The notes beneath the pieces are model-generated. The model saw nothing but the letters and a program-made list of their open reading frames with translations. It was not told the origin of the DNA and ran no database searches. 64,000 bases of DNA. It comes from a phage. The stretch lies in the NCBI GenBank assembly GCA_018027755.1, contig GCA_018027755.1_4098.1; one strand, given 5' to 3'. Numbering within the stretch: the stretch's first letter is position 1; each line of letters opens with the position of its first letter. This document shows positions 2,006 to 48,000 of the stretch, one piece after another. Both the position numbers and the translations under genes were made by a program.

Positions 2006-4294
2006 ATGAATCTTACTCAATTGTTCAAAAAAAGCGACGAACTGGCAACATCTCTAGGTCATACATTCTTGACTATTGACCACGTAAGTGCCACAGTACT
2101 GACTATTGATAGCATCAAGAACGTATTTGAAGATATGAACATTGATGCAGACAAACTGCACAACCGCCTGATGAACTATCTTAAAAATACAACAGTTCCA
2201 CATGCACCAAAAAGTGTTAAAGATGAAGACGCGAATCGCACTTCACTTCTAGTGAATCGCGTTGTACATGAGCTTTCTAAAAAATCAGTTATTGAACAAC
2301 TAAAAAGTGATGATTTTTCGATTGATGCATATTTTGTTCTATTCGAATGTCTGTCTTTCCCTAACACAGCACTAGAAGCTGCGTTGAAAGAAGAAGGTGT
2401 TAGCTGTACTGAAGCTGCACGTGCATTGCAAAAACACGTTGAGTCACTTGATAAGGGTATCAACTTACAAAGTATTAATGACGAACCGATTGGAGATAAA
2501 AAAGTGGCCCAACAGCAGCAATCATCTAAACAAAAAGGTTTGGAAGACTATACAACGAATCTAACTGCTCTTGCAAAAGAAGGCAAACTAGATCCTATGA
2601 TTGGTCGCCAGAAAGAATTGTCTGCATTGATTGAGACTCTTGCTCGCAAAACCAAAAAGAATGCTATTCTTACTGGTGAAGCTGGTGTAGGTAAAACACA
2701 AATCATCGACGGTCTTGCACAAGCTATTGCTGACGGCAACGTACCTGAACACCTGAAAGACGTTGAAATTCTTTCACTAAATGTTGGTGCATTGACTGCT
2801 GGTACTAAGTATCGTGGTGAGTTTGAAGAACGCATCGACAATTTGCTAAAAGAACTAAAGAAACGTGAAAATACTATTGTTTTCATTGATGAAATTCATA
2901 TTATGGTTGGGGCTGGTTCCGCTAGTAATGGTTCTATGGACATGAGCAATATGCTTAAGCCAGCACTTTCACGTGGTGAGATTCGTGTAATTGGTGCAAC
3001 AACATATGATGAATATCGTAAAAATATCGAGAAAGATAGTGCATTAACTCGTCGTTTTATGAAAATTGATGTAGTTGAGCCGTCAATTGATGAAACTCGT
3101 GCAATTGTTAATGGTTTGAAACCAACTTATGAAAAATTCCATAATGTTGAGTTCACAACTGATGCAATGGATGCTGTAATTTCTCTCAGTGATAAATTCC
3201 TGAAGAATAAGCACTTCCCAGATAAAGCAATTGATCTAATGGACGCTGCCGCTGCAAAAGTTCGTTCACGTGACAACAATAGTAAGCTTATTACTGCCAA
3301 TTTGATTCAAGAAGTTGTTGCTGGTATTGCCAATTTGGATATCAACGTGGTTGCATGTACTGAAAGTGATCGTATGCGTAATCTACCAGATGCACTACGC
3401 TCACGTGTATACGGTCAAGAGGAAGCTATTCAAAAATTAGTTGATAACGTGATGGTAGCTCGTGCAGGACTGCGTGACAAATCTAGTGTTCAGGGTGCAT
3501 TTATGTTTGTTGGACCATCTGGTACTGGTAAAACAGAAATTACCAAAGCATTAGCAGATGCAACTGGTGCGGAACTGATTCGCTTTGATATGTCAGAATT
3601 TTCTCAAGAACATACTGTTTCTAAACTAATTGGTTCACCTCCAGGTTATGTTGGTCATGATTCTGGTAACGGTTTACTGTTGGATAAAATTGAGCAGTTC
3701 CCTAATGCAGTACTGTTACTTGATGAAATTGAAAAAGCAGATCGTAAAGTACTACTAACCTTCCTACAGGTTTTGGATGAAGGTCGCCTGACTGGTTCAC
3801 AAGGTAAAACTGTATATTTTAATAACGTAACTGTTATTATGACTACAAACCTTGGTGCGGCAGATTCAACGAAGCGTAGCATTGGTATGAGCGGTAGTGA
3901 TACTGCACAAGACAAGGCAATTAAAGCATTCTTGCCACCAGAGTTTATTAACCGTATTGATAGTATCGTTACGTTTAAAGACCTAAGCAGTGAAGCTATT
4001 GACAGCATCATTGATAAGTTCATGGGCAGTTTGAATGAACAAGTCAAAGACCGCAATGTTAAAGTTACATTGACAAAAGCTGCACGTGAATGGCTTGCGA
4101 AAAATGGGGTAAAAGTTGGCATGGGTGCACGTCCAATGAAACGTACCATTGAACAAAACATTCGTGTACCACTAGCTAAAGAAATGTTGTGTGGTTCACT
4201 TGTGAATGGTGGTAACATTACATTTGATGTTATTGATGGTAAAATCGGTATTAAACCGAAACGTTCCAAAGCTGTAGATAAAGCACTGGCATAA
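2006..4294 (+). CDS. ClpA-like AAA+ ATPase/unfoldase (double Clp-N domain, two AAA+ modules)
   Basis: ORF track 1985..4294; likely start ATG 2006 with AGGAG RBS; Walker A GEAGVGKT (D1) and GPSGTGKT (D2), Walker B FIDEIH / [10 protein letters not shown]-terminal Clp-N repeats, IGM loop in D2 resembling the ClpP-docking IGL/IGF loop; no ClpB-type middle domain. Confidence 0.85.
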
Positions 4295-26860: not shown

Positions 26861-29008
26861 ATGCTAAACATTACACGTATATCTATGAGGAACTTCTTTT
26901 CATTTGGTAATGCACCACAATCAATTGATTTGAATGGTTCCGACATTTCATTAGTACTGGGTCAAAATAATGATGCAGTTATTGAAGGTGGTGACAGTAC
27001 CGGACGTCGAAATGGTGTAGGGAAAAGTGCTATTATTCAAGGATTAGTTTTTGGATTATTTGGTAAAAGTATTGGTAATGATATTAAAATTCCGAACCTA
27101 GTCAATAAAACTAATGGCAAAAATTGTGAAGTAGTTGTAGAGTTTGAAAAAGATGGTGTACAATATCTGGTTGAACGTGGGAGAAGTCCCACGTATTTCA
27201 ATTTTGTTACTTTAGGGAAAGATAATAAAATTGAAGATGAATCAAGGGGAGAAAAGAAAGACACACAAGAAGATTTGAATGAAATTCTTGGTATATCTCA
27301 ATTATTATTTGAACATATTGTAGTACTGAATGCTAACGTTGAACCTTTCTTAGCTTTATCCACACAAAAACAACGTGATATGATAGAAGAACTTCTTGGA
27401 ATAACACAGTTGACGGAAAAAGCTGAAATGCTAAAGGAGATGTATAAGGATACTAAACGTTTAGCCGAACAAGAAAAGTTCAAAAATGAAACTGTAGCTG
27501 CAAGTAATGAACGTATTCAAAAAAGTATTGAGACACTACAAGAACAGGCAAACCAGTTTGAAATTGATAAAAATAATAGAGTATCTAAGTTAAATGAAGA
27601 GTTGAATATATATAAAACTTTAGACTTTAATGACCTCTATGAAGCTGCTGATATAAAAGAGAAAGCTCTTATTCATAACGCAAAGCGTGGGGAAATCGAA
27701 CGCCGTGTACAAGAGTTGGCTTTAAAATTTGATGCATATGACCGTGAACTTGAAAGATCTAAAAGAGAATTAAATCTAAGCATTGATAAGCTAAAAACTA
27801 TTGATATTAGTGCAGAATTGGAAAATCATAATGAGTTGGAGATATGGAAACAGTTAGAGGGTATTCTAAAAGAGAATAATAACCAAAAACGTTTCAAAGA
27901 ACAAAAACTAAACTCACTAAAAATAGCTTTAAAAGGATATGAATGTTCAATTAATGCTGAAATTGACAAATTATCAACAGTTGAAAACAGCAAATGTCCA
28001 CTTTGTATGTCTGAATTAGAACATAACGAACATACTTCTTCAATTAAAGACAAAATCCAAAGTACTATTAATGATCTTCAAGCTAAAATTGATAGTTCTT
28101 CTTCTGAAATTGAAACATTACTTCAAGAAATTGATAGTATTGAGATTTTTGATATGCCACCTAAGCCTGTGACATATTATAATACACTTTCAGAAGCACA
28201 AATGCATGAACATAAGCTTCAAGAATTGGTCAGAAAGAGTGAAGAAGAACAAATAAACATCTATGCAAATGAACTTATGTCATCATATGATGAACTTAAC
28301 TCATATGAACTAATGGAAGTTCCAGATACATTAAACAAATATGAAGTTAAAGAGTTAGAAATGACTGTAAATTCATTATCACAGCAATTAGATCGTGAAT
28401 TGAAGACTACTAACACATTTATTAGCCAAATTAATACCCTGAAGACTGATTCTTTAGTACCAATCGATTATAGCGACTATAATAATCTTGATAAAATGTC
28501 AAATCACCAAGATTTCTTGGTTAAATTACTTTTAAACAAGGATTCTTATGTCCGTAAACGTATTATTGAGCAAAATATCTCATATTTGAATACACGACTT
28601 CAGTACTATATCGATATGTGCGGTTCTGAGCATAATGTTGTGTTTTTGAATGATTTGAGTGTTGAAATTGAGAAGAGTGGACAGTACTTTGACTATAAAC
28701 AGCTTAGTAGAGGTGAGCGTACAAGGGTAAACATCGCATTATCTTGTGCTTTCCGTGATACATATGAGTCATTATACCAAAGTATTAATATTCTTATCAT
28801 TGATGAGATGATTGACCAAGGTCTTGACTCGAGTGGTGTTCTACGTGTGTGGTCTATCTTCCAAGATATGGCTGCTGTACGTGGTAAGAACGTTTATGCT
28901 ATTTCCCACAGAGAAGAGTTACTATCTAAGACTGAAAAAATCCTCAAAGTTGTTAAAGAGGACGGTTTCAGTACTGTTGAATATGCAACCCTTGACGATG
29001 TTTTCTAA
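26861..29008 (+). CDS. recombination ATPase subunit gp46-like (Rad50/SbcC)
   Basis: N-terminal P-loop GVGKSAI, long coiled coil with CPLC zinc hook, C-terminal signature/Walker B (LSRGERTR, ILIIDE). Confidence 0.85.
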   Translation: MLNITRISMRNFFSFGNAPQSIDLNGSDISLVLGQNNDAVIEGGDSTGRRNGVGKSAIIQGLVFGLFGKSIGNDIKIPNLVNKTNGKNCEVVVEFEKDGVQYLVERGRSPTYFNFVTLGKDNKIEDESRGEKKDTQEDLNEILGISQLLFEHIVVLNANVEPFLALSTQKQRDMIEELLGITQLTEKAEMLKEMYKDTKRLAEQEKFKNETVAASNERIQKSIETLQEQANQFEIDKNNRVSKLNEELNIYKTLDFNDLYEAADIKEKALIHNAKRGEIERRVQELALKFDAYDRELERSKRELNLSIDKLKTIDISAELENHNELEIWKQLEGILKENNNQKRFKEQKLNSLKIALKGYECSINAEIDKLSTVENSKCPLCMSELEHNEHTSSIKDKIQSTINDLQAKIDSSSSEIETLLQEIDSIEIFDMPPKPVTYYNTLSEAQMHEHKLQELVRKSEEEQINIYANELMSSYDELNSYELMEVPDTLNKYEVKELEMTVNSLSQQLDRELKTTNTFISQINTLKTDSLVPIDYSDYNNLDKMSNHQDFLVKLLLNKDSYVRKRIIEQNISYLNTRLQYYIDMCGSEHNVVFLNDLSVEIEKSGQYFDYKQLSRGERTRVNIALSCAFRDTYESLYQSINILIIDEMIDQGLDSSGVLRVWSIFQDMAAVRGKNVYAISHREELLSKTEKILKVVKEDGFSTVEYATLDDVF

Positions 29009-29018
29009 TTAAAGATAA

Positions 29019-29042
29019 AGGGAGCCTTAGCTCCCTTTTTTT
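29019..29042. terminator. intrinsic terminator after gp46-like gene, overlapping the 3' end of the convergent gene
   Basis: agggagc-ctta-gctccct hairpin followed by T7 run. Confidence 0.55.
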
Positions 29043-29518
29043 ATATCAACCATATTTAATTTACCGTCCTTAATCAGCTTTCTAGCTTGCTTTACACGAG
29101 CAGTAGTGTTACTACCAGGGACAACTCCTAACCCTTCCAGAATCGCGTTTTGCTGTGTTGCTGGAAGCCTTTTAAACTTATTAACATCCACAGTTAGTGC
29201 TGTGTGATGTATGACTTGCTCTTCAGGTGGAATGTTATTGTTCTTTTCAAGATAATCTGCCAGATTTCTTAGTACTTCATGAAGAGGTTTATCAGTTAAA
29301 TGGCCCAGACAGCGTTTAAATGAATTTGCGACCCTTCCTTCCCATCCATTCACCTCATTTTGAAGAACCTGTCTACAATGTTGATTTCCACCATGATAGT
29401 GGTCAAGTACTGGTTTAGTTATTTTTATTCCTATAATGGGGTCAATACCATTTTGTTTTTTTAGTAGTTCTTTTCTGTAAGCTGCTGCTTCATTGGGATT
29501 TTTCAATCTCTTTTTCAT
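29027..29518 (-). CDS. endonuclease VII-like (HNH/beta-beta-alpha-Me) junction nuclease, putative
   Basis: 163 aa; D39-H40-x-H42 (LDHYHGG) positionally matches the T4 endo VII D40/H41/H43 active site; only two Cys so zinc site incomplete. Confidence 0.4.
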   Translation of the reverse strand: MKKRLKNPNEAAAYRKELLKKQNGIDPIIGIKITKPVLDHYHGGNQHCRQVLQNEVNGWEGRVANSFKRCLGHLTDKPLHEVLRNLADYLEKNNNIPPEEQVIHHTALTVDVNKFKRLPATQQNAILEGLGVVPGSNTTARVKQARKLIKDGKLNMVDIKKGS

Positions 29519-29563: not shown

Positions 29564-30115
29564 GTGAGGTACACAAGAATAGCTAAAATTACACAACAAC
29601 AATTCATAGATAAATCAATGAATATTCATGGTAGTATTTACACATACAATAAAACAATATATGTCAATGCACACCATCCAATAACTGTTACGTGTAACAT
29701 TCACGGTGACTTCACAGTAGTTCCTAATAAACACATTTCTGCAAAACAAGGGTGTCCAGTTTGTTCAGACCAAGAACTAAAATCAAAACCTGTTATTGAA
29801 ATTCAGAATTTTTTAAAAACGTGTGATATAATGTTTGAAATGGAAAAGAAATTTGATAGTTGTAAAAACATCAATCATTTACCATTTGATTTTTATATTC
29901 CTGAACTTAATCTACTAATAGAATATGATGGTATCCAACACTTCAAACCAATAGAATACTTCGGTGGAGAAGAAGGTTTAGCTGAACAACAACGAAATGA
30001 TGAAATTAAGAATAAGTATTGTTATGATAATAATATTACTTTACTTAGAATAAAGTATTCAGATGACCACATTAAAATTATAAAAGACTTCATATCAAAA
30101 AATATAAATTATTGA
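29564..30115 (+). CDS. homing-endonuclease-like protein: zinc-ribbon module fused to a PD-(D/E)xK (Vsr/restriction-endonuclease-like) domain
   Basis: N-terminal module YVNAHHPITVTCNIHGDF...GCPVC matches repeats of the 431-aa protein at 40565; C-terminal FDFYIP-x5-LLIEYDGIQH motif; track start is GTG 29564, ATG at 29618 is more likely. Confidence 0.55.
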   Translation: MRYTRIAKITQQQFIDKSMNIHGSIYTYNKTIYVNAHHPITVTCNIHGDFTVVPNKHISAKQGCPVCSDQELKSKPVIEIQNFLKTCDIMFEMEKKFDSCKNINHLPFDFYIPELNLLIEYDGIQHFKPIEYFGGEEGLAEQQRNDEIKNKYCYDNNITLLRIKYSDDHIKIIKDFISKNINY

Positions 30116-37343: not shown

Positions 37344-37967
37344 ATGAGTAGTATGATTCGTGAATGGTCTTCATTCAATGATTCTAAAGTTGTTTTGGAA
37401 CATCGTGATAATGGATTTGGTGGGCGTGACTGCTATCTTCGTGGTATTGCTATTCAAGCCGACCAACGAAATTTGAACGAGAGAATTTACCCTTTATCTG
37501 AAATTACAAGGGCAGTAAATAACATGAACCAGCGTTTAGCTAAAGGTGAAAGCATTCTTGTTGAATGTGACCATCCAGAAACACTAACTATTAACCTAGA
37601 CCGAGTAGCAGCAATGATTACTAAGGTTTGGATGGAAGGTGCTAATGGTATGGCAGAAATCAAACTACTTGATACTGCACATGGTCAAAATATCCGTAAA
37701 ATGCTAGAGGCTGGTGTAAAACTTGGTGTAAGTTCTCGCGGTTCCGGTAACGTTGATTATAATGGAATAGTTTCTGATTTTGAAATTATCACTATTGATA
37801 TTGTTGCTCAACCTAGTGCTCCAGAAGCATACCCAACAGCGGTATTTGAATCTCTGATGAGTAAGTACGGATCACCTTGTAATAGTTCTAAAAAAATCAC
37901 TGAATCTAAAAAAGTAAATAATTTAGATTCTGAAATATACGATTTTTTCAAGAAATTAAAAGGTTAA
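37344..37967 (+). CDS. prohead core protease, gp21-like
   Basis: GVKLGVSSRGSGNV and IDIVAQPSAPEAYP match T4 gp21 GVELGVSSRGYGSV / IDLVMTPSTPEAIP. Confidence 0.8.
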   Translation: MSSMIREWSSFNDSKVVLEHRDNGFGGRDCYLRGIAIQADQRNLNERIYPLSEITRAVNNMNQRLAKGESILVECDHPETLTINLDRVAAMITKVWMEGANGMAEIKLLDTAHGQNIRKMLEAGVKLGVSSRGSGNVDYNGIVSDFEIITIDIVAQPSAPEAYPTAVFESLMSKYGSPCNSSKKITESKKVNNLDSEIYDFFKKLKG

Positions 37968-37978
37968 CATTTTAAAAA

Positions 37979-38011
37979 TATAAATATCTGTATGTTGAAG
38001 TACAGATATTT
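37979..38011 (+). promoter_or_regulatory. T4-late-type promoter TATAAATA followed by 11-bp-stem hairpin in scaffold gene leader
   Basis: TATAAATA at 37979-37986; inverted repeat aaatatctgta/tacagatattt (37982-37992/38001-38011) before RBS AAGGAG. Confidence 0.45.
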
Positions 38012-38033
38012 CAGTACTTAAAGGAGAGAACGA

Positions 38034-39149
38034 ATGTCTAAATTAGAAAAGCTTCTAAAAGAATCATCTCTTTCTGATGAGGCAAAACAGCTAATTCAGG
38101 AAGCATGGAATGAAGAAAAGAACACACTAGCCGCAGAGATGCGTGAAGAAATGAAAGGCCGTTATCAGCAAGATTTGGCTGAACTAACCGAAGGTTTGAA
38201 CACTATGGTTACTCAAGTCATTGCTGAAGAAATGGGTGCTGTATATGAAGAGAAAAAACGTCTTGTTGAAGATCGTGTAACTCTACGTAAAACACTAAGC
38301 AATTTCTCTGCGTTTTCAAACTCTGTTTTGGCTGAAGAAGTTAAACAAATGCGTAAAGAACGTAAGCATCTTCATGAATGCATGGGTAAATTCGTTAATT
38401 TTTCTAACGGTATCCTAGCAGAAGAGCTAAAAGAATTCCACACTGAAAAACGTCAACTAGTTGAAACTCGCGTTAAACTACTTGCTGAAGGTTCACGTCA
38501 AATTGCTGAAGCTCGTAATAACTTCATCAAACGTACATCTGAAAGTGCTGCTAAATATATTGCAGAAACCACTCAGAAGAATCTATATGCGTTGAAACAA
38601 GATCTAGTGGAAGCAAAACAAAATATGTTTGGTCGTAAAATCTTTGAAGCATTTGCTCAAGAGTTTAATGTCAAACAATTTAATGAAAACTCATTGCTAC
38701 GTTCCCTAACTGAATCAATTAAATCTAAAGAAGATGAAATTGCTCAAGTTAAGCAAGAACTACATGAAACTGCTAATGCGGTTAAAGCTGCTAAAACCAA
38801 ACTACGTATTATGGAAGATGCACAAGCACGTAATGCGATTATGTCTGAACTAGTAAAACCACTAACTGCACAGCAAAAACAAATTATGGAATCTCTTCTA
38901 GCTACTTCACCTACTGAAAAGCTTAAAGAAGATTTCAGCAAGTACCATAAGTCAGTACTTAACGGTACTAAAGTAAATGAATCTGCTACCACTCGTCAAG
39001 CAGTTCAGTCTTCCGCTAAGAAAACTCTTGCAGAAGGTAAAGTAATCACTGGCAACCGTCAGGCTATTGTTGAAAGCGAAGAAATGACCGCTGACGATAT
39101 GGCATTCCTAAAAGAACTCGATGTTCTTTCAGGTATCAATAAAAAATAA
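38034..39149 (+). CDS. prohead scaffolding protein, gp22-like
   Basis: 371 aa, Glu/Lys/Ala-rich predicted coiled coil, between protease and major capsid genes. Confidence 0.6.
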   Translation: MSKLEKLLKESSLSDEAKQLIQEAWNEEKNTLAAEMREEMKGRYQQDLAELTEGLNTMVTQVIAEEMGAVYEEKKRLVEDRVTLRKTLSNFSAFSNSVLAEEVKQMRKERKHLHECMGKFVNFSNGILAEELKEFHTEKRQLVETRVKLLAEGSRQIAEARNNFIKRTSESAAKYIAETTQKNLYALKQDLVEAKQNMFGRKIFEAFAQEFNVKQFNENSLLRSLTESIKSKEDEIAQVKQELHETANAVKAAKTKLRIMEDAQARNAIMSELVKPLTAQQKQIMESLLATSPTEKLKEDFSKYHKSVLNGTKVNESATTRQAVQSSAKKTLAEGKVITGNRQAIVESEEMTADDMAFLKELDVLSGINKK

Positions 39150-39187
39150 ACATTTTAAAGCATTTTAATAATCAAATTTTTCAGTTC

Positions 39188-39195
39188 TATAAATA
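39188..39195 (+). promoter_or_regulatory. T4-late-type promoter (TATAAATA) for major capsid gene
   Basis: exact TATAAATA about 45 bp upstream of capsid ATG; leader motif aaataatatcatact...acgaat shared with 36438-36470. Confidence 0.55.
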
Positions 39196-39240
39196 ATATC
39201 ATACTGAAAAACGAATATAACATCTTTAAGGAGATATATA

Positions 39241-40416
39241 ATGTCACAACTACTAAATGAATCCAAATGGGTAGCAGTAAAAGAGAAACTAGTTGAAGGT
39301 CTACAGGGTACTCGTAAGTCTGTAATGGAAACTGTTCTTGATAACCATCGTAAAGTTATGCTAACTGAATCCGCAACTTCTGGTGCAACTACCGCTGGTA
39401 ACATCGCTACTCTAAACAAAGTGATTCTACCAATTATGCGTCGTGTAATGCCAACCGTTATTGCTAACGAAATCATCGGTGTTCAACCTATGACTGGTCC
39501 AGTTGGTCAGATCCACACCCTACGTGTACAATATGCTGATAACGCACCTGGTGTAATCGCTGGTGAAGAAATGCTTTCTCCATACAAAATCGCTAAATCT
39601 TACTCTGGTGATCTAAATGCGGATAATAGCAACCCACAAGCTGCTCCTACTAGCCAACTAGAAGGTACTATGGGTCGTCGCGTTAACATCCGTATTCTAC
39701 GTGAAACTGTTGAAGCGAAATCTCGTCGTCTATCTGCACGTTGGACTGTTGAATCTGCACAAGATGCTCAATCCCAACATGGTGTTGACGTTGAAGCAGA
39801 ACTAATGGCTGCAATCGCTCAAGAAGTTACTGTAGAAATCGACCAAGAGCTACTAAGCCGTCTACGTGCACTACCTGGTGCTGCTGCTGTAACTTATGAC
39901 CAATCTAAAGTTACTGGTGTTGCAACCTTCGTTGGTGATGAGCACGCTGCTCTAGCTACTCTAATTAACCGTCAAGCAAACGAAGTTGCTCGTCGTACTA
40001 AGCGTGGTGCTGCAAACTGGGCTGTTGTTTCCCCAACTGCACTAACCATTCTACAATCTGCTACTACTTCTAGCTTTGCACGTACCACTGAAGGTACTTT
40101 TGAAGCACCAACTAACGTTAAGTTTGTAGGTACTCTAAACAGCACTATGCGTATTTTCGTTGATACCTATGCTAGTGATGCAGAAGATATTCTAATTGGT
40201 TATAAAGGTAATGCGGAAACTGATGCTGGTGTATTCTATTGCCCATACATCCCACTAATGGCTTCTGGTACTGTAATGGACCCTAACACTGGTGAACTCG
40301 TGACCACATTTTTAACACGCTATGGCTACGTTCAGCTAACCGACAGTACTTCATCTCTTGGTAACGCTGCTGACTACTACAGCAAAATCGCTATCAAAAA
40401 CGTTACTTTCATGTAA
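39241..40416 (+). CDS. major capsid protein, gp23-like
   Basis: VIANEIIGVQPMTGPVGQIHTLRV, VEAKSRRLSARW, ILIGYKGNAETDAGVFYCPY match T4 gp23 LIAFDICGVQPMNSPTGQVFALRA, IEAKSRQLKAAY, GYKGPNEMDAGIYYAPY. Confidence 0.9.
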   Translation: MSQLLNESKWVAVKEKLVEGLQGTRKSVMETVLDNHRKVMLTESATSGATTAGNIATLNKVILPIMRRVMPTVIANEIIGVQPMTGPVGQIHTLRVQYADNAPGVIAGEEMLSPYKIAKSYSGDLNADNSNPQAAPTSQLEGTMGRRVNIRILRETVEAKSRRLSARWTVESAQDAQSQHGVDVEAELMAAIAQEVTVEIDQELLSRLRALPGAAAVTYDQSKVTGVATFVGDEHAALATLINRQANEVARRTKRGAANWAVVSPTALTILQSATTSSFARTTEGTFEAPTNVKFVGTLNSTMRIFVDTYASDAEDILIGYKGNAETDAGVFYCPYIPLMASGTVMDPNTGELVTTFLTRYGYVQLTDSTSSLGNAADYYSKIAIKNVTFM

Positions 40417-40460
40417 TTATAAACGATTTAAAAGATTTAATCAAGAATATAAAAACAATA

Positions 40461-40490
40461 GGGACTCTTCGGAGTCCCTTTTCTTTTGTG
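40461..40490 (+). terminator. intrinsic terminator after major capsid gene
   Basis: gggactc-ttcg-gagtccc hairpin followed by T-rich run. Confidence 0.65.
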
Positions 40491-40502
40491 TTAAAAAAAT
40501 GC

Positions 40503-40531
40503 TTGACAGAATATTTTTAATTATATATAAT
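40503..40531 (+). promoter_or_regulatory. consensus sigma70 promoter (TTGACA-17 nt-TATAAT)
   Basis: TTGACA 40503-40508, 17-nt spacer, TATAAT 40526-40531, directly upstream of homing-endonuclease-like ORF. Confidence 0.55.
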
Positions 40532-40564
40532 TATCAAATCGAAACCAAGTTGAGTAAATTGAAA

Positions 40565-41653
40565 ATGTTAATTGAAAATTTCAAAAAGAAAATGAATGAA
40601 AAATATGGAATGTATGGTGAGTTTGATTTTAATTCGATGATTTTTAAATCTAGCAAAACTACCTTGAAATGTAACAAATGTGGTATTGAAAATACAAAGT
40701 CTGCAATTCGTCATATCTCATGTACTTGCTCTAACTGTTATAGTAACATGTCCCAGCGTTCCAATAATGATGATTTCATTTTAAAAGTTGAAAAGAAATT
40801 CGGGACTGAAAAATTTAAATTTGATAAATTGGTTTATGTTAATGCAAAAACTCCAGTTACAATATTCTGCACTAAACATAATGGTTATTTTCACATAACA
40901 CCAAATAAGTTATTAACTGGTGCTGGATGTAACGTTTGTAATATTAATGTAGTGCATACGAATAATGAATTTATAAAAATTGTTAAACGTAATTATGGTG
41001 ATAAATTTAGTTTCCAAAAAACCAACTATATTAACAGAACAACAAAAGTCACAGTGCATTGCAATGAAGGAAATCATGATTGGGAAGTTGATCCAAAAAC
41101 ATTGATACTTGGGAAGTCAGGATGTGGTATATGTTCAGGTAAAGGTGGGAGAACAACCGAGCAATTTATTGCAGAAGCTGTAAAAGTTCATAACAATAAT
41201 TATGATTACTCATCTGTTATGTATGAGCATAGTGAAAAAATGGTCGAGATAAAATGCAACAATTGTAAAAATATTTTTCATCAGCAACCTAAAGCACATT
41301 TGACAGGTCGTGGTTGTCCAAAATGCGGTAAGTATGGTTATCAGACTTCCAAGCCTGGATATTTTTATGTACAGAAACTAACTAATAAAGATAAAACCGT
41401 TTATAAATATGGAATCACTGGTGATATGAAACGTAGAGTGAACGAACAGAGTCGTGATTCTGAATTCGTCCATGAAGTACTAGTAGAACGTTTCTTCGAA
41501 GATGGTAATAAACCCCTCTTACTGGAAAAGTTTATCAAGCAGTACATTGAAAGTGGAGTAGTAAGTACTGAAGAGTTGCCGTCAGGATTTACTGAAACGT
41601 TTGATGAAAAGTATCTAAAATCTGTACTGGAAATTGTAAATACCTTTAAGTAA
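40565..41653 (+). CDS. free-standing homing-endonuclease-like protein: four tandem zinc-ribbon modules plus C-terminal GIY-YIG superfamily (T5orf172-like) domain
   Basis: track ORF 40358..41653 overlaps capsid gene and terminator, so start placed at ATG 40565; repeated ~40-aa Cys modules ending G(C)xxC; C-terminal GYFYVQKL-x9-YKYGITGDMKRR resembles GIY...YIG...R. Confidence 0.55.
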   Translation: MLIENFKKKMNEKYGMYGEFDFNSMIFKSSKTTLKCNKCGIENTKSAIRHISCTCSNCYSNMSQRSNNDDFILKVEKKFGTEKFKFDKLVYVNAKTPVTIFCTKHNGYFHITPNKLLTGAGCNVCNINVVHTNNEFIKIVKRNYGDKFSFQKTNYINRTTKVTVHCNEGNHDWEVDPKTLILGKSGCGICSGKGGRTTEQFIAEAVKVHNNNYDYSSVMYEHSEKMVEIKCNNCKNIFHQQPKAHLTGRGCPKCGKYGYQTSKPGYFYVQKLTNKDKTVYKYGITGDMKRRVNEQSRDSEFVHEVLVERFFEDGNKPLLLEKFIKQYIESGVVSTEELPSGFTETFDEKYLKSVLEIVNTFK

Positions 41654-41667
41654 ACAATCTAAAGGAG

Positions 41668-42027
41668 TTGACACGGATGTTAACTGTATACAAATTTAAA
41701 AGAGAAGAGTACTTAAAGAGCCAGTACTCAAATATAGAAATAAATGTTCCTTATGGTACGTTAGTTGGATACGATGAAGCCACTGAAACATTGTATTATA
41801 ATGATGATAGATTAGATTATAGTTTAGATTCTTTCATAGAAGATATACTTAATACACATACTGAAGATATGTTGTATGAAGAATACATCGATCATTATAG
41901 AGAACGTATGTCGCTGCTGCATTCTGATGCTCCTGTGCTAAACATTGCACAAGAACCCTCGGAATTTCAGCCACATAATCCTTTTCAACGTTTAATTGAT
42001 ATTGGTTTAAAATTCACTATTAATTGA
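41668..42027 (+). CDS. hypothetical protein (119 aa)
   Basis: ORF with GGAG RBS downstream of homing endonuclease gene. Confidence 0.45.
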   Translation: MTRMLTVYKFKREEYLKSQYSNIEINVPYGTLVGYDEATETLYYNDDRLDYSLDSFIEDILNTHTEDMLYEEYIDHYRERMSLLHSDAPVLNIAQEPSEFQPHNPFQRLIDIGLKFTIN

Positions 42028-42066
42028 TAGATAAATATCTCCATATTAATGATGGAGATTGAATCT

Positions 42067-42375
42067 ATGTCACAGATATGTTATGTTATAATAAACTCTG
42101 CATGGCCTGACTATGTTAAGATTGGTTTCACTTCTAAATCTGAAATGACAGAGCGTTTGAGAACGTATCAGACAGCTACCCCGTTTCGTGATTTTGAAGT
42201 TTATCATGAAGTTCACTTTGAAGACGCACGTTTAGCTGAAAAAGAGATACATAAAAGGCTTAAACAAATGAATGCAACTAGACAACCAAACACGGAGTGG
42301 TTTAAAATGTCTAAAAAGATAGCAGCAAACATCATTGATTCTGTGTGGGATGATATGGATAACGACTTGCTATAG
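42067..42375 (+). CDS. small GIY-YIG superfamily (T5orf172-like) domain protein
   Basis: track ORF starts 42049; CYVIINS-x7-VKIGFT...R...EWF pattern; no DNA-binding extension. Confidence 0.45.
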   Translation: MSQICYVIINSAWPDYVKIGFTSKSEMTERLRTYQTATPFRDFEVYHEVHFEDARLAEKEIHKRLKQMNATRQPNTEWFKMSKKIAANIIDSVWDDMDNDLL

Positions 42376-42415
42376 GAATAAATATAGTATATATTAATCA
42401 TAAAGGGATTTATAC

Positions 42416-44026
42416 ATGAGCATAAGTTTTAATAACCCATTGGATACAATGACCAGTACTGGTGCTAATGGATCTTTAGAACTAATAGTGCTTGGTGGTA
42501 CACCAACTAACCCAAGACCTATTCGTTTTAATTCGTCATCAGTTATTATACCAGTACAAACTTTACCTACTGGTGAACAAGGTGCAATGGTTTTTGATCG
42601 AAGCGAATTAGTTTTGAAGTATCATAACGGTACAAGTTGGGTTGCAGTATATGATACTGATACTATTTTGGAACCAATTAGAATTTCATTAGATGAAGTA
42701 AACCGAAAATTAAATTTAAAAGTAGAAAGTGTAACATACAGTAGTAGTACTGTTCCTAGTGCAAGTATTAGTGGAACAACCTTAAACATTGTATTCCCTA
42801 CTGCTTCTAGTGGTGGTTCTGGTCCAACTGGTCTTTACACTTCACTTAAACCTGGTGCTATTACACAATATTCATTGACTTCTGGTCAATCTGTTGCTAG
42901 TATACGTGAACAAATGTCAGGACAATCGAATGGACAAAGTGGGAGAAACGGTTCACAAGGTGCTCCGTGGAAAACGTCTGACGGTTGGTGTTTTGCTGAT
43001 GGTATGTGGTGGCAATGGGAGGGGGAAAATGGTACAATTACTAAACAAGTACCAAACCTTAACCAAAAAGCGTACTTAAAAGGTATATCTACATCTGGTG
43101 TAACTAAAACTGATAGTGTTATTGGTAGTAGCGGTAATATTAGCGGCACAGTATTAAGTGTTGCCCAATTACCATCACACTCATTTAGTTTTAGTGGGAC
43201 CACAGGGGCTGCTGGTCGTCATGGTCATAGTCAAGCACTAAAAGGTATGGACCGTAGTGGTCTAAATGCGATAACTTCAAGTAATGATAACGGTATACCA
43301 ACTGTAATCAATAACATTAACGAAGCACCAGACCACATTCACTCATTTAGTGGAAACACTAACACACTTGGTGGAAACCAACCACACTATCATGGTATTA
43401 GTAACATTGATGTGGAACACTTTAACGTTGCATATCTATATAACATTGCTGAATCTAACGTTGCATTGAGTGAAAAAGTTGCAAACACTCGTTATGTACT
43501 AAAAACTGGTGATACAATGACTGGTTCATTGACTATTGCAAACAGTGCGTCAATTAAGTCAAATGATACATCATTAGTTCTATATTTCCGTAACGCAAGC
43601 GGTGGTGAGCGTGCGGCAGTGTATCATAACTCTTCAAATAATACATTGAGATTGCGTTCCGGTGGAGCAGAAGTTACTGTAAACTCTTCTGGTACTTTAG
43701 CTGCTCCATCATTAACTGTTTCTAACAACTCAGCTACTGTTGGTGGTAAAAATATTGTTCGTTCAATTAACGGTACTGCTGCTGATGCTAGTGGCAACGT
43801 TACTTTGCAAATTAGTACTAATAACGTACAAAGTATTCGTTTGAGTGCACGTATTGAAACACGTAAAATACCTGATTCTTCATGGACATATACACCAGAA
43901 GGTGCATTTATGGATGGCGTATGGATTTCTGTTAATGGTAGTTCAGGCACTCACTTAGAACGAATTAGTTATCGCTATGTTCAAATGCAAATAAATGGTA
44001 ACTGGGAAACAGTACGTCAACAATAA
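42416..44026 (+). CDS. tail fiber / receptor-binding protein (putative)
   Basis: 536 aa; Ser/Thr/Gly/Asn-rich; repeated HSFSFSG...HGH and HIHSFSG...HYH His-x-His motifs as in phage fiber tips; followed by chaperone-like gene. Confidence 0.5.
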   Translation: MSISFNNPLDTMTSTGANGSLELIVLGGTPTNPRPIRFNSSSVIIPVQTLPTGEQGAMVFDRSELVLKYHNGTSWVAVYDTDTILEPIRISLDEVNRKLNLKVESVTYSSSTVPSASISGTTLNIVFPTASSGGSGPTGLYTSLKPGAITQYSLTSGQSVASIREQMSGQSNGQSGRNGSQGAPWKTSDGWCFADGMWWQWEGENGTITKQVPNLNQKAYLKGISTSGVTKTDSVIGSSGNISGTVLSVAQLPSHSFSFSGTTGAAGRHGHSQALKGMDRSGLNAITSSNDNGIPTVINNINEAPDHIHSFSGNTNTLGGNQPHYHGISNIDVEHFNVAYLYNIAESNVALSEKVANTRYVLKTGDTMTGSLTIANSASIKSNDTSLVLYFRNASGGERAAVYHNSSNNTLRLRSGGAEVTVNSSGTLAAPSLTVSNNSATVGGKNIVRSINGTAADASGNVTLQISTNNVQSIRLSARIETRKIPDSSWTYTPEGAFMDGVWISVNGSSGTHLERISYRYVQMQINGNWETVRQQ

Positions 44027-44036
44027 GGAATGTGTA

Positions 44037-44552
44037 ATGCAACTAACAAATTTTAAGATGTATGAAAAAGAAGGTGGTAATCCTAATTCTTTGTATATGA
44101 TGTCCGATGAAGGTATGGATTGGTATGAATCTCGTGAATTGTTTGACATTAATAAAGCAAAATTTATGTATGATATTAACGGTTTAATTGTTTCAGCATC
44201 ATATAACATTTATGATCTAGTACCTTTAGGTTTTAGTGTTTCTGAAATTGAATATGATGGTGATATTAACAAACTTTATGGTATGGTTTACGATGGAAAT
44301 ACTATTCATGACTATATTGAAACTAAAGAAGAAAAAATTGAACGCCTAAAAAATGAATTATCTAATTTGAAATACATTGCAATTCAAGAACTTGGACACT
44401 TAAAAACTGCTATGGATCTTGAGTTAGCAACTGATGAAGAAGCTGTATTGTTTGTAAAATTGAAAGATTATGTAACGCAATTGAATTCAATCAAACCAGC
44501 AGACATGATCAAGAAAACATTTTCATTTCCAGTTAAACCGGAAAAAAAATGA
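44037..44552 (+). CDS. tail fiber assembly chaperone (putative)
   Basis: 172 aa directly downstream of fiber gene; start ATG 44037 after AAGGA (track ORF 43995). Confidence 0.4.
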   Translation: MQLTNFKMYEKEGGNPNSLYMMSDEGMDWYESRELFDINKAKFMYDINGLIVSASYNIYDLVPLGFSVSEIEYDGDINKLYGMVYDGNTIHDYIETKEEKIERLKNELSNLKYIAIQELGHLKTAMDLELATDEEAVLFVKLKDYVTQLNSIKPADMIKKTFSFPVKPEKK

Positions 44553-44642
44553 GACAACACGTAAAGACGTGATACAATTAAGTCATCTCACCGATTGTGG
44601 TGAGGTGACATTTTTTTGAAAACACACATGGAGAAATACAAA

Positions 44643-44945
44643 ATGGCTAAATCTAAAAAAGAAGTTAAAGTTGAAATTCGTGATCTAAACGATGAACAAC
44701 GTAAACGTCTCGGTGACGCACTTAACAACATTGTTGTACAACTAACTTTCATTGATGATACCAAAGCATCCTTATCTGATTTTGTTTCTAGTGTTTCTGA
44801 TGAACTTGGTATCGATGCATCTGATATCAAACAAGCTGCACAACGTATGTACAAAGGTGATTACTTTGACAAACAAAATAAACTCGATAATATCGAAACT
44901 ATTCTTAGTGTTACTAATAATCTTCCACAAGCAGATGATTACTAA
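44643..44945 (+). CDS. hypothetical protein (~100 aa)
   Basis: track ORF 44616..44945; ATG 44643 has GGAGA RBS; terminator follows. Confidence 0.45.
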   Translation: MAKSKKEVKVEIRDLNDEQRKRLGDALNNIVVQLTFIDDTKASLSDFVSSVSDELGIDASDIKQAAQRMYKGDYFDKQNKLDNIETILSVTNNLPQADDY

Positions 44946-44967
44946 TTAGTACTAAAATATATTAAAT

Positions 44968-44995
44968 AGCCTCCAATGACGGAGGCTTTCTTTTT
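44968..44995 (+). terminator. intrinsic terminator
   Basis: agcctcc-aatgac-ggaggct hairpin followed by TTCTTTTT. Confidence 0.6.
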
Positions 44996-45024
44996 AACTT
45001 AATAAACGTAAGGGAATACAAACG

Positions 45025-48000
45025 ATGTATATCGATGCTTATATGGAACGTAAACGTACTGGTGATATTCTTCATGTAGTTGAACGTAAGAATGGTAAAC
45101 GTATTCTACGCGAATTAGAACCAGTATATGAATATTATGTTGAATCCCCACAAGGAACACATAAAACTGTTTATGGTACAATGGCTAAACATTTTGAGTT
45201 TCAAACTCAAGCTCAAATGAATAAAAGTGTAGAGCAACACAAAAGTGAAGGTCTACGTATTTTTGAAAGTGATTGTAACATTACATTTAAAACATTAGCT
45301 AAAGAATATATGGGAAAAGGTTCACCCGATTTGAACATCGTGTTCTTCGATATCGAGACTGATTTCCATAAGAAATTTGGTTATGCTCCACCATCAGACC
45401 CGTTTAACCGAGTAACCGCTATTTCTCTATATCAATCATGGACTGGAAAGGATTATGTACTTACTTTACCACCTGCTGATATGGAAATTTATGAAGCACA
45501 AGATATTGTTCGCCAACTAAATGAAGAAACAAACGATCCTAACAGTACTGTAATTTTATATACAGACGAAAAGGAAATGTTTATGGAATTCTTTAGTTTA
45601 ATTGATGATTCTGATGTTATTTCAGGATGGAATAGTGAATTCTTTGATATTCCATATATGATCAATCGAACTAAAAAAATCTTCAATGAAGCAACAACTG
45701 CTCGTTGGTGTTTATGGAATAAAAAACCAAATTCACGTGAAGCAGACAACTTTGGTAAAACTGTTCAAACATATGATCTGGTAGGTCGCGTCCATCTTGA
45801 TTATTTGGCTTTGTATAAGAAACATGCTGGTCAAGTTGAACAATCTTATAAACTAGATTATATTGCTGAAAAAGTAACTAAAGAAAATAAAGTATCATAT
45901 GAAGGTTCATTGGATAAACTTTACAGAGAGGATTACATTACTTTCTTGCGTTATTCTAAACAGGATAGTATTCTTCTTAAAAAGATTGATGCTAAATGTG
46001 ACTATATCAACCTACACAATCGACTTGCACACAAAGAATGTGTACTTATCAGTACAACAATGGGTTCAGTAGCACTAATCGACACTGCTATTATCAACTT
46101 AGCACATACTCGTGGTGAAGTTGTTTTCAACAAAGCACCGAAAGATGATCTTGAGTTTGATCCAGAAATGGAATATTATGGTGAAGATGGTGAAGATGAA
46201 GATGAGAAAATTAGTGCAAAAGCAGCAGGTGCATGGGTACAAGATCCAGTACTAGGACTTGTAAGTGACCTTGGGTGTACTGACTTTAACTCTCTTTACC
46301 CTACTGTTCTACGTACTTTGGGTATGAGTACTGAATGTATTCTTGGTCAATTACGTCAAGATTACACCGATGCGTATCTTGCAGCTAAAATCCAAGAACA
46401 GAAGAACAAATCTAAATCTAAATCATTTGAACCAGATTGGACTGCGGCATGGCATGGTTTATTTGCTGCTGTTGAATTTACAATGGTTCATGAAAAGTCA
46501 GAAGAAACATTGATTGTTGATTTAGAAGATGGGAGTTCTTTTAAAGCAACGGGCAAAGAGCTATATGATATTATTTTTGCAGAAGATAGTACTATTGTAC
46601 TTAGTGCAAACGGAACACTTTTTGATAAGTCTAAGTCTGGTGTAATTCCTGACATTCTAACTCAATGGTATTCTGAACGTAAAGCACAGCAAAAAATGGT
46701 CATTGACTACAAACATATGTATACTGATGGTTGGGAGTTTAATGGCTATGAAAAAGTCGAACCACTACTATCAAACTATACCCCTGGTACAATGTTTAGA
46801 ACTAATATTCATGATAATGATCCTGTATACTTACTTCGTAAAGAAATTGGTAAAGGACAGTGGGATGAAGTTGCTAAGTTGATTGTAGAAAACGGATTAG
46901 TACTAAAAGATGGTCGTATTTTCTGTCCTAAAGAAGAAAAAGATTACTTCAAACAACGTAGTGCTTTCTGGAAACAGAACCAACAGATTCGTAAGATTCT
47001 TCTAAACAGTCTATATGGTGCACTATTGAACAAAGGTTCTCGTTTTTTTGACAAACGTTTAGGTCAATCCGTAACATTAACTGGACGTTCTATGACCAAA
47101 CATATGGCAAGTCGTATCAATGAAATTACTACTGGTGTATATAACCACCAAGGTGGTTCAGTAATTTATGGTGATACTGACTCAGTTTACTTTAGTGTAA
47201 CTCATTATCTGAAAGAACAAGGTATTCCATATAATCTATCTAAAGAAGAGATTGTTGATATGTATATTAAAATTGGTGAAGAAGTTGGTGAATCTTTCCC
47301 ATCATTTATGCATGAGATGTTCAACACTGGTATTGAAAAAGGTAAGATTGTTGGTGCAGACCTTGAGATGGTTGGTTCGCGTGGCCTATTCTTGAAGAAA
47401 AAACGTTATGCAATTCTGAAGTACTGGGAAGATGGGTTCCGTAAAGATATTGATGGTAAACCAGGTGAAATCAAAGCGATGGGTCTTGAAATTAAACGCT
47501 CAGATACGCCAAAATACATCCAGAACTTCCTAGAAGAGACTCTAATCGCATTACTGGTAGGTGAGAGTGAACAACAGCTAAAACAGCGTGTACGTGAGTT
47601 TAAGGACGTATTTAAGGATATGCCTGTACATGAAAAAGGTTCACCAAAAACTGTAAAAAACTACACTAATTTAGAGGCTGAATATCAGCTAACTGGTAAG
47701 TGTAAAGTTGGTCACGTTCTTGCTGGTATCCAATGGAACCGTCTACGTGAAGTTTATGATGATAAATCTGTTCCAGAAGTAACAGATGGAACAAAAGTAA
47801 TTGTCTGTAACTTAAAAGATAATCCTATGGGAATTAAAGCAGTTGGTTATCCAATTGACTGTGTTGAGTATCTTCCAGAATGGTTCTTGGAACTACCATT
47901 TGATACTGAAAAAATGGAAGAGATTGTTCTAACTAAAAAATTAGAGAATATTTTTGGTATTTTGGATATGGATATTGGTATTCATGAAAAAAGTACTGCG

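Follow-up and report, generated by a model that had tools for sequence, protein, structure and literature searches.

The gene that lies directly downstream of the major capsid gene in this jumbo coliphage is, judging from comparative sequence analysis, probably a free-standing homing endonuclease gene of the T5orf172 type. It occupies a recurrent insertion site that reaches from the capsid terminator to the start codon of the next gene. The window, i.e. the whole stretch of 64,000 nucleotides analysed here, comes from an Asteriusvirus, a 121Q/PBECO4-like jumbo phage with E. coli as its host. The gene joins a DNA-binding region to a nuclease domain, both predicted, and stands by itself, with the capsid gene on one side and a conserved 116-aa gene on the other. 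It is a further member of a class described in 2023 by Barth, Dunham and Seed (PMC10448857). The features of the locus are as follows.

39241-40416: major capsid gene, gp23-like (Pfam Gp23, E = 1.3e-89)
40100-40416, + strand: 3' end of the gp23-like capsid gene, a hypervariable, mosaic flank
40460-40488, + strand: intrinsic terminator of the capsid gene, which marks the left edge of the variable segment and is kept in all relatives
40493-40531, + strand: promoter of the inserted gene (A-tract 40493-40499, -35 hexamer 40503-40508, 17-nt spacer, -10 hexamer 40526-40531)
40565-41653, + strand: nuclease ORF, 362 aa plus stop, with its ATG at 40565
40565-40750, + strand: zinc module 1, aa 1-62, CxxC...CxCxxC (from the alignment and AlphaFold2)
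40751-40948, + strand: zinc module 2, aa 63-128, ligands C102, H105, C122 and C125
40949-41143, + strand: zinc module 3, aa 129-193, ligands C166, H170, C187 and C190
41144-41332, + strand: zinc module 4, aa 194-256, ligands C231, C234, C251 and C254; Pfam DUF4379
41333-41650, + strand: C-terminal T5orf172-type domain (GIY-YIG superfamily), aa 257-362
41654-41676, + strand: right end of the inserted segment, with a ribosome-binding site (AAAGGAG, 41661-41667) serving the downstream 116-aa gene
41677-42027, + strand: conserved 116-aa gene (PHROG 15724), the right-hand anchor of the insertion site and itself within the variable right flank

Downstream of the nuclease ORF, the 116-aa gene is followed by a small T5orf172 gene and then by the tail fibre gene. 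An earlier note on this DNA, made from the sequence alone, had placed the ORF between head and fibre genes. It does follow the capsid gene directly, but two genes separate it from the tail fibre gene. At every empty site the 116-aa gene lies directly 3' of the capsid gene.

Terminator, promoter and start codon

The capsid terminator consists of a hairpin (40460-40479) with the stem AGGGACTC/GAGTCCCT and a 4-nt loop, followed by the T-run TTTTCTTTT up to position 40488. It was found where it had been claimed (40461-40488), now with its first base at 40460. Next comes the promoter that the earlier note had read at 40503-40531, and here the reading was exact: TTGACA, 17 nt and TATAAT match the consensus at 12 of 12 positions. 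This is the sole perfect match in the 64 kb window, for which base composition predicts about 0.05 perfect sigma70 matches, and a UP-like A-tract (40493-40499) precedes its -35 hexamer. Transcription would start near 40538. Sigma70-like sites as such are not enriched over 36-46 kb (36 found, 38 expected from shuffled sequence), so weight is given only to the perfect match and to the fact that it recurs in relatives.

This recurrence extends to all nine inserted genes inspected, which are of four kinds: just behind the capsid terminator, each has a sigma70-like match at the corresponding position. The hexamers of the other inserted genes were read by eye and are of uneven quality. They are TTGACA/TATAAT in SP27 and EcMJ, TTTACA/TATAAT in 121Q, TTGACA/AATAAT in slurp01 and E9.1, and TTGACA/TATCAT in UE-S1, while those of SHEFM2K and P0032 are weak. 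No TTGACA-type match was found at the empty site of PBECO4. On these comparisons, the promoter is part of the inserted segment. Early genes of the Rak2-like phages are marked by RpoD-like promoters (PMC5259590). On the + strand, no terminator-like site was found between 40479 and 43777, hence none after the ORF, and transcription may therefore run on into the downstream genes.

The program-made ORF begins at a TTG at 40358, within the capsid gene. We rejected this longer frame, which runs over both capsid gene and terminator and extends beyond the start of every homologue. The in-frame ATG at 40565 gives a protein of 362 aa, which equals the length of the homologue P0001 (99% identity, 100% coverage). 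Because the product matches P0001 over its full length, the earlier proposal that the real start lies after the promoter is right.

Four zinc modules and a putative C-terminal nuclease domain

The N-terminal region does hold four tandem Cys-containing modules, as first noticed, but they are not of ~40 aa: each measures ~62-66 aa. In the family alignment and the AlphaFold2 model, each module runs from a helix through a beta-hairpin to a short helix and has four Cys/His ligands. The predicted elements are H3-17, E32-35, E42-45 and H56-59 in module 1, H68-79, E98-102, E107-111 and H113-118 in module 2, and H133-144, E162-166, E171-175 and H177-182 in module 3. Invariant cysteines are found in module 2 (C102, C122, C125), module 3 (C166, C187, C190) and module 4 (C231, C251, C254). 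Module 4 matches Pfam DUF4379, a treble-clef zinc finger, above threshold (E = 4.5e-7, 30.4 bits, cut-off 24.5, aa 206-255), and the CapR match of the window protein falls below threshold (E = 0.0055). Precomputed database hits for P0001 are PF05265 (DUF723) and PF14311. We place the modules in the CapR/DUF723/DUF4379 group on the Pfam match of module 4 together with the four Cys/His ligands of every module. Module 1 is absent from the 3-module alleles. Module 4 is 59% identical to that of P0002 and 81% to that of P0003, and by such alignments its history differs from that of modules 1-3.

The C-terminal domain is, by sequence and predicted structure, assigned to the T5orf172 group of the GIY-YIG superfamily, as the earlier note had proposed. 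The window protein by itself stays under the Pfam threshold (PF10544, T5orf172: 15.4-16.5 bits, gathering cut-off 20), and the assignment is drawn from Pfam matches of its relatives, the predicted fold, PHROG 681 and the similarity to ICP1 tcgB. T5orf172 matches occur in 18 of the 23 aligned relatives (E <= 0.1; best 6.2e-6), and the cut-off is passed by P0032 (24.1 bits), SHEFM2K (26 bits) and ICP1 tcgB (21.2 bits). The match to PHROG 681, annotated 'endonuclease', has E = 2.6e-73, and BLASTP aligns the protein to tcgB at 30% identity over 224 aa (E = 2e-17). The predicted model has the GIY-YIG fold, with a sheet of three strands flanked by helices (beta-beta-alpha-beta-alpha).

The motifs of this domain are GYFYV, YKYGIT, RRVNEQ, LLLEKF and GFTETF. 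Y268, K281, G283, E321, G341 and E344 do not vary across 40 homologues, and R291 hardly does. The arginine of helix 1 (R291) and a glutamate after strand 3 (E321/E344) are both conserved, making them candidate catalytic residues; a loss of GIY-YIG catalytic residues, which the earlier note had named as telling against a homing endonuclease, is not seen. That said, the second tyrosine of GIY-YIG is a lysine here (K281), which counts against the homing reading. The His/Tyr that is usual in the first helix of GIY-YIG domains was not identified in the window protein, which likewise counts against it.

When a profile of the domain was searched against PDB sequences, the sole match was the GIY-YIG protein 1zg2. 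The match is weak (E = 0.45), and in its alignment the profile's glutamate pairs with a glutamate in the corresponding helix of 1zg2. A profile comparison with the neighbouring small T5orf172 protein is suggestive (55% probability, E = 1e-4). Foldseek returned only meaningless matches for the full-length model against the PDB (TM-scores 0.1-0.2), which is to be expected of a beads-on-a-string model with a pTM of 0.45. An NCBIfam search of the protein returned nothing.

Occupancy of the insertion site in relatives

A synteny comparison at the junction downstream of gp23, which the earlier note had suggested, shows that the gene is not present in all relatives and that the site is polymorphic for presence and absence. 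Matches were obtained to roughly 60 Rak2-like genomes, of which about 34 are Escherichia phages. PBECO4 carries no gene here, and the span at this locus is equally short in four Salmonella SD phages, whose sites are empty too. IMG/VR was used for outgroup sites only (best capsid identity there 92%, with no close Asteriusvirus relative); among these outgroup loci, with capsid proteins 85-92% identical, ten are empty and one holds a different T5orf172 gene. Since the outgroup genera are empty, the insertion is the derived state.

A good example is the pair PBECO4 and SHEFM2K. Both flanks are 100% identical in these phages, and the sole difference is a 332-aa T5orf172 gene in SHEFM2K. As the empty-site phages are otherwise near-identical to carriers and evidently viable, the gene is dispensable.

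The insertions share their breakpoints, at 40482-40494 on the left, where homology with every relative stops, and at 41647-41677 on the right. Within these breakpoints we find at least five contents: an empty site, the 4-module gene, the 3-module gene, the T5orf172 gene of SHEFM2K (Pfam E = 1.3e-5) and the gene of UE-S1, which encodes DUF7487 plus REase_MTES_1575, a nuclease family unrelated to T5orf172. Two distant alleles, P0032 (44% identical) and P0023 (55%), are likewise located immediately 3' of a Gp23-type capsid gene. The segment 41654-41676 hardly differs among the seven Asteriusvirus T5orf172 genes that were compared, of which the gene of SHEFM2K is otherwise unrelated; the empty site of PBECO4 has a different 45-bp leader instead of this segment. 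For the window allele, the closest relative in the phage database does not exceed ~73% nucleotide identity.

Mosaic flanks

Evidence of exchange is also found in the sequences on either side. On the left, seven closely related genomes show 47 variable sites in 40100-40399 against 21 in 37500-40099, which amounts to a ~20-fold enrichment in the final 300 bp of the capsid gene (odds ratio 22.8, p = 4e-32). On the right there are 113 in 41700-43299 against 23 in 43300-45399 (p = 2e-22), a variability that could partly reflect diversification of the tail fibre and not homing. Both figures come from 7-9 genomes only, which are phylogenetically non-independent. The variation at the capsid 3' end is silent in the four relatives checked out of six (PBECO4, 121Q, SP27 and slurp01), as their capsid proteins are 100% identical. 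For 40090-40500 no database match exceeds 95.5% identity, and phages that are ~98.5% identical over the whole left flank fall to ~92% at the capsid 3' end. From these sequence patterns, 40100-40416 is a candidate co-conversion tract or target region.

Pairwise comparisons illustrate the same point. The phages 121Q and SP27 are ~100% identical save for ~1.9 kb centred on the gene (67-95%). SP27 and EcMJ share 93-100% identity in the gene but 71-87% in the backbone just downstream. Across the 7-9 genomes, then, mosaic flanks accompany a gene history at odds with that of the backbone, a footprint of the gene-conversion type. We looked for flank variants that set every carrier apart from every empty site and might thus mark a target or immunity site; none occurs in the first 140 bp downstream, nor in the 70 bp from the capsid stop codon to the terminator, and flank haplotypes follow the type of inserted gene only loosely.

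Comparison with known systems

Putative homing genes that combine T5orf172 with multiple zinc fingers (CapR/DUF723/DUF4379) have been described near capsid genes by Barth, Dunham and Seed (2023, PMC10448857), who found a capsid gene in 31% of the T5orf172 gene neighbourhoods surveyed. According to these authors, homing by members of the class has not been verified experimentally (PMC10448857). Like other members, e.g. ICP1 tcgB (gp130), the window gene encodes N-terminal zinc-finger modules and a C-terminal T5orf172 domain, is free-standing beside an essential gene, is variably present among close isolates, and exchanges modules between alleles. It differs in its host, being carried by a jumbo Asteriusvirus of E. 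coli and not by ICP1 or marine vibriophages, in its neighbour, since tcgB adjoins the terminase gene and not the capsid gene, and in its site, which also accepts a nuclease of a kind other than T5orf172 (UE-S1).

Insertion site, architecture and promoter position are shared with 121Q gp604 (annotated 'endonuclease' in RefSeq) and its orthologues in SP27, BF17 and slurp01. Compared with these gp604-type proteins, the window protein is ~70% identical overall, with 58-62% in the zinc modules and 91-92% in the nuclease domain. The slurp01 type, unlike the window protein, is without module 1.

The T4 Seg and I-TevI endonucleases are modular, beads-on-a-string proteins, and I-TevI has a zinc finger. 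Genes of this type stand free between conserved genes and home with co-conversion of their flanks. Their nuclease domain is N-terminal, whereas that of the window protein is C-terminal (aa 257-362). With its domain order reversed, the protein would work like a Seg protein without being a member of the Seg family. The T5orf172 domain also differs in having KxG in place of YIG and a GxTE(T/W)F motif, and the DNA-binding modules are of another kind.

ICP1 Odn (gp88) is the sole T5orf172 protein whose nuclease activity is reported as demonstrated in PMC8263062 and PMC10448857; it cleaves DNA in vitro, and the substitution E180A abolishes cleavage (PMC8263062). Odn shares with the window protein a C-terminal T5orf172 domain with a conserved Arg and Glu. 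Unlike it, Odn has a RepA_N DNA-binding domain and targets the replication origin of a satellite, and so is an anti-parasite weapon and not a homing gene. The zinc-finger module, in turn, is homologous to the DNA-binding module of PLE CapR, in which the zinc-finger cysteines are needed for DNA binding (PMC8096241). CapR differs from the window protein in being a satellite-encoded repressor without a nuclease domain.

A proposed homing model and its alternatives

We propose the following model. The inserted segment brings its own consensus sigma70 promoter, from which host RNA polymerase would transcribe the gene early and independently of the surrounding late genes. By the precedents of CapR and I-TevI, the four zinc modules, a beads-on-a-string arrangement, would read a long asymmetric DNA site. 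The C-terminal T5orf172 domain, to go by its conserved residues and the example of Odn, would then cut the DNA nearby. In a mixed infection, the empty or differently occupied site of a relative would be cut near the junction of the capsid and 116-aa genes. The recombination machinery of the phage would repair this break from the gene-carrying genome, thus copying the gene in and co-converting its flanks. The population footprint fits homing: presence and absence among near-identical phages, unrelated nucleases in shared breakpoints, flanks that are mosaic and silently hypervariable, and exchange of modules between alleles.

Other functions can be envisaged for such a gene. It may be a domesticated weapon of competition, a marker-exclusion nuclease that cuts co-infecting relatives or satellites and spreads as a by-product. 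Odn of ICP1, a T5orf172 nuclease that cuts PLE, is such a weapon (PMC8263062), the contrast between zinc modules (41-70% identity) and nuclease domain (88-92%) fits an arms race over target specificity, and the gene is intact, without frameshifts, in all nine Asteriusvirus alleles inspected. We nevertheless consider this unlikely: no satellite or other foreign target is known for these phages, PADLOC gave no defence-system match for the protein (the sole hit, to Cas12f, has E = 0.0028 and is at chance level), and near-identical phages do without the gene. Its mechanism overlaps heavily with homing, and sequence cannot separate the two. Less likely still is a CapR-like DNA-binding regulator, derived from a homing endonuclease, that tunes the capsid or late genes with a nuclease domain that is inactive or secondary. 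The homologous zinc-finger domain of CapR binds and represses the promoter of the ICP1 capsid operon (PMC8096241), I-TevI is also an autorepressor (as cited in PMC8263062), and the window gene, directly 3' of the capsid gene and terminator-less, has a promoter that may drive early transcription downstream. Yet the nuclease Arg and Glu are invariant or nearly so in the 40 homologues, which argues for retained catalysis, and one would not expect near-identical phages to lack a regulator of essential late genes or to have an unrelated REase-type protein in its place.

We give least credence to an ordinary, non-mobile accessory gene whose presence and absence result from deletions and general recombination near the tail-fibre genes. 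In many phages the tail-fibre region is a recombination hot spot, and here the variability of the right flank reaches ~43200, inside the N-terminal part of the fibre gene. On this account, however, one would have to explain a derived insertion, four unrelated or distantly related nuclease genes in identical breakpoints, silent hypervariability on the far side from the fibre genes, within the capsid gene, and, between SP27 and EcMJ, a gene more conserved than its backbone.

A further idea goes beyond homing by this one gene, and we offer it as a speculation with little weight: that the junction is a landing site taken in turn by unrelated nuclease families, each arrival rewiring host-phage expression. 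If true, transcription from the early sigma70 promoter would extend to the 116-aa gene, the small T5orf172 gene and the gene for the tail fibre, the selfish gene would alter the expression timing of its neighbours or compensate for it, and the zinc modules might act on capsid or late-gene control, as CapR does. The last codons of the T5orf172 alleles (GAA ATT GTA AAT A...) hold a late-promoter-like GTAAATA ~38 nt before the downstream start codon, and (C/G)TAAATA stands at the corresponding place in empty sites.

Implications

With the homing endonuclease reading, a "hypothetical protein" of a jumbo coliphage becomes nameable as a putative T5orf172 homing endonuclease, and the start of its reading frame, its promoter, the limits of its domains and its likely catalytic residues are now defined. 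The results are also a warning for phage typing: the major capsid gene is a common marker, and its 3' end owes a local mosaicism to the neighbouring nuclease gene. For the class as a whole, Asteriusvirus is a natural test bed. It offers a nearly isogenic pair with and without the gene (SHEFM2K and PBECO4), several divergent alleles in backbones that are ~98% identical and, within the same breakpoints, a nuclease of an unrelated family.

Gene order and occupancy of the site

The 5 kb around the open reading frame (ORF) match genomes of Asteriusvirus, the Rak2-like jumbo coliphages: 121Q over the full length of the query (91.5% identity), and SP27, PBECO4 and others over the aligned parts only (95-98%). 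The ORF follows the capsid gene directly.

Gene order around the nuclease ORF
37344-37967, prohead protease (Peptidase_S77)
38034-39149, scaffold
39241-40416, gp23-like major capsid protein (Pfam Gp23, E = 1.3e-89)
40565-41653 (+), nuclease ORF, between the capsid gene and the 116-aa gene
41677-42027, 116-aa gene
42049-42375 (+), stand-alone T5orf172 gene, 108 aa (Pfam E = 3.7e-13)
42416-44026, tail-fibre gene

The earlier note proposed a free-standing homing endonuclease, and this reading is supported by the occupancy of the site, by footprints in its flanks and by resemblance to a described class. We take the gene to be a new and divergent allele within a known class of elements. Junction alignment and pairwise BLAST place the left breakpoint at 40482-40494 in all relatives, just 3′ of the terminator T-run, and homology returns at 41647-41677, just 5′ of the ATG of the 116-aa gene.

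Contents of the site in relatives
PBECO4: empty, 45-bp leader
Four Salmonella SD phages: the same short span as the PBECO4 empty site
121Q, SP27, EcMJ and others: four-module T5orf172 alleles, protein identity only about 70%
slurp01, E9.1: three-module alleles without module 1
SHEFM2K (L085, 3057-4055): T5orf172 protein, 332 aa, with a different N-terminal region that has no Pfam match
UE-S1 (L086, 3009-4667): DUF7487 and REase_MTES_1575 protein, 552 aa, a different nuclease family

Synteny comparison thus reveals a presence/absence polymorphism, the site being empty in PBECO4 and ten outgroup loci and variously filled in other relatives. In these ten loci a homologue of the 116-aa gene directly follows the capsid gene (capsid protein 85-92% identical), so an empty site is the ancestral condition. 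A single outgroup locus has a different T5orf172 gene there, and two distant metagenome alleles (44% and 55% identical) also lie directly 3′ of a Gp23-type capsid gene.

Footprints in the flanks

A comparison of seven close genomes puts 47 variable sites in 40100-40399 and 21 in the 2,600 bp before (odds ratio 22.8, p = 4e-32). Four of these relatives were checked for the capsid protein, and all have it 100% identical. On the right, enrichment extends as far as about 43300 (113 vs 23 variable sites, p = 2e-22). Haplotypes are mosaic. The 411 bp at the end of the capsid gene have a best database match of 95.5% and are ~92% identical to phages that share ~98.5% identity over the whole left flank. 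In sliding windows, 121Q matches SP27 at about 100% identity save for ~1.9 kb centred on the gene, and the gene is the only difference between PBECO4 and SHEFM2K. Between SP27 and EcMJ, identity is 93-100% in the gene and 71-87% in the backbone just downstream. The differences between slurp01 and E9.1 lie mainly within the gene, in a stretch of roughly 300 bp. These patterns are consistent with gene conversion.

The nuclease and its zinc modules

By itself the protein scores under the Pfam T5orf172 cut-off, and 18 of 23 aligned relatives match this family (best E = 6e-6). A search with the whole protein gave PHROG 681, "endonuclease" (E = 2.6e-73). Since Y268, K281, G283, E321, G341 and E344 show no variation, and R291 almost none, there is no sign of the catalytic-residue loss that the earlier note had named as evidence against its reading.

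Four cysteine-rich modules are indeed present, but their period is about 65 aa, not the ~40 aa first claimed. In an AlphaFold2 model (pLDDT 88) a unit of helix, hairpin and short helix occurs four times ahead of the C-terminal domain, and the pTM of 0.45 suggests that the modules are independent beads. Across 40 homologues the ligand cysteines of modules 2-4 do not vary, and module 4 exceeds the Pfam threshold for DUF4379, "probable treble clef zinc finger". Module exchange is confirmed by two homologues with opposite identities to our protein: P0002 (modules 1-3 83-90%, module 4 59%) and P0003 (60-68% and 81%). Where the zinc modules of alleles are 41-70% identical, their nuclease domain still shows 88-92% identity.

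Repeated CapR/DUF723/DUF4379 zinc fingers are a feature of the T5orf172 homing genes described by Barth, Dunham and Seed, which occur close to essential genes (31% of neighbourhoods include a capsid gene), shuffle modules and lie at boundaries of genetic exchange (PMC10448857). Our gene agrees with this class in all respects that could be tested. It is a direct homologue of a named member, ICP1 tcgB/gp130, which adjoins the terminase gene and is annotated as a putative homing endonuclease (BLASTP, 30% identity over 224 aa spanning two zinc modules and the nuclease domain, E = 2e-17). The T5orf172 protein Odn has nuclease activity that needs a conserved Glu (PMC8263062), and the CapR zinc finger binds DNA in a cysteine-dependent manner (PMC8096241). 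With its reversed domain order, our protein does not belong to the T4 Seg type of enzyme. Literature searches at the level of titles and abstracts turned up nothing on this site in Asteriusvirus, a weak negative.

Transcription signals

The capsid-terminator hairpin (40460-40479, plus T-run) and the TTGACA-17-TATAAT promoter (40503-40531) were both correctly noted. The promoter is the sole perfect match in the 64-kb window, where base composition predicts ~0.05, and an A-tract lies immediately 5′ of its -35 hexamer. The nuclease does start after it: ATG 40565 gives 362 aa, in agreement with every homologue, including P0001 (99% identical, 362 aa, listed by NCBI as "hypothetical protein", from a 347-kb contig recorded under E. 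coli). The mechanical ORF start, TTG 40358, lies within the capsid gene and further upstream than any homologue reaches.

A sigma70-like match directly follows the capsid terminator in 9/9 inserted genes examined, which are of four kinds, a non-T5orf172 one included; the hexamers were called by eye, some of them weak. The SHEFM2K and UE-S1 nuclease genes each carry their own. At the same position in the PBECO4 empty site there is none; empty sites carry a (C/G)TAAATA motif instead, resembling the ATAAATA late-promoter consensus of Rak2-like phages, in which RpoD-like promoters mark early genes (PMC5259590). We found no terminator 3′ of the nuclease ORF. Together, these signals suggest that the gene is transcribed early, possibly with read-through into neighbouring genes.

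In T5orf172 alleles the last codons (GAAATTGTAAATA...) put GTAAATA ~38 nt 5′ of the downstream ATG (window 41630-41676). The empty-site motif lies at a similar distance (PBECO4 locus L001, ~2990-3035), and (T/C/A)TAAATA also precedes late genes in the window. The nuclease gene may contain a late promoter at its 3′ end, a speculative idea given that the SHEFM2K gene lacks GTAAATA there.

Other nuclease genes in the window

A second free-standing nuclease gene with the same kind of zinc module lies at 29564-30115 (+). Its 183-aa protein has one DUF723-like module (Pfam DUF723, E = 1e-3) and a PD-(D/E)xK-like C-terminal region (DUF2726, E = 9e-4), and matches phrog_559 (E = 1e-50) and phrog_9084, 'homing endonuclease' (E = 4e-30). 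It adjoins an endonuclease VII gene (phrog_423, 29027-29518, -). About 600 bp here are absent in most relatives (1,203-bp span vs 1,801-bp query). Full coverage of the query is limited to two records, and the flanks are only about 91% identical.

The 108-aa T5orf172/MUG113 protein (PADLOC PDC-S57, E = 2.7e-17) lacks a DNA-binding domain. Its gene is conserved in place in all Asteriusvirus relatives that were examined, as it is in ten outgroup loci (66-79% identity in the latter), in contrast to the variable nuclease gene two positions upstream, and may encode a domesticated nuclease domain.

The ORF at 26861-29008 (+), 715 aa, corresponds to a gene annotated in relatives as SbcC-like/recombination endonuclease subunit (gp46-like). 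It belongs to the phage-encoded machinery for recombination, which would mend nuclease-made breaks.

Significance

The finding will not surprise a specialist. Homing by the T5orf172 class is, according to its describers, without experimental verification (PMC10448857), and this locus is a tidy natural system for a first experimental test.
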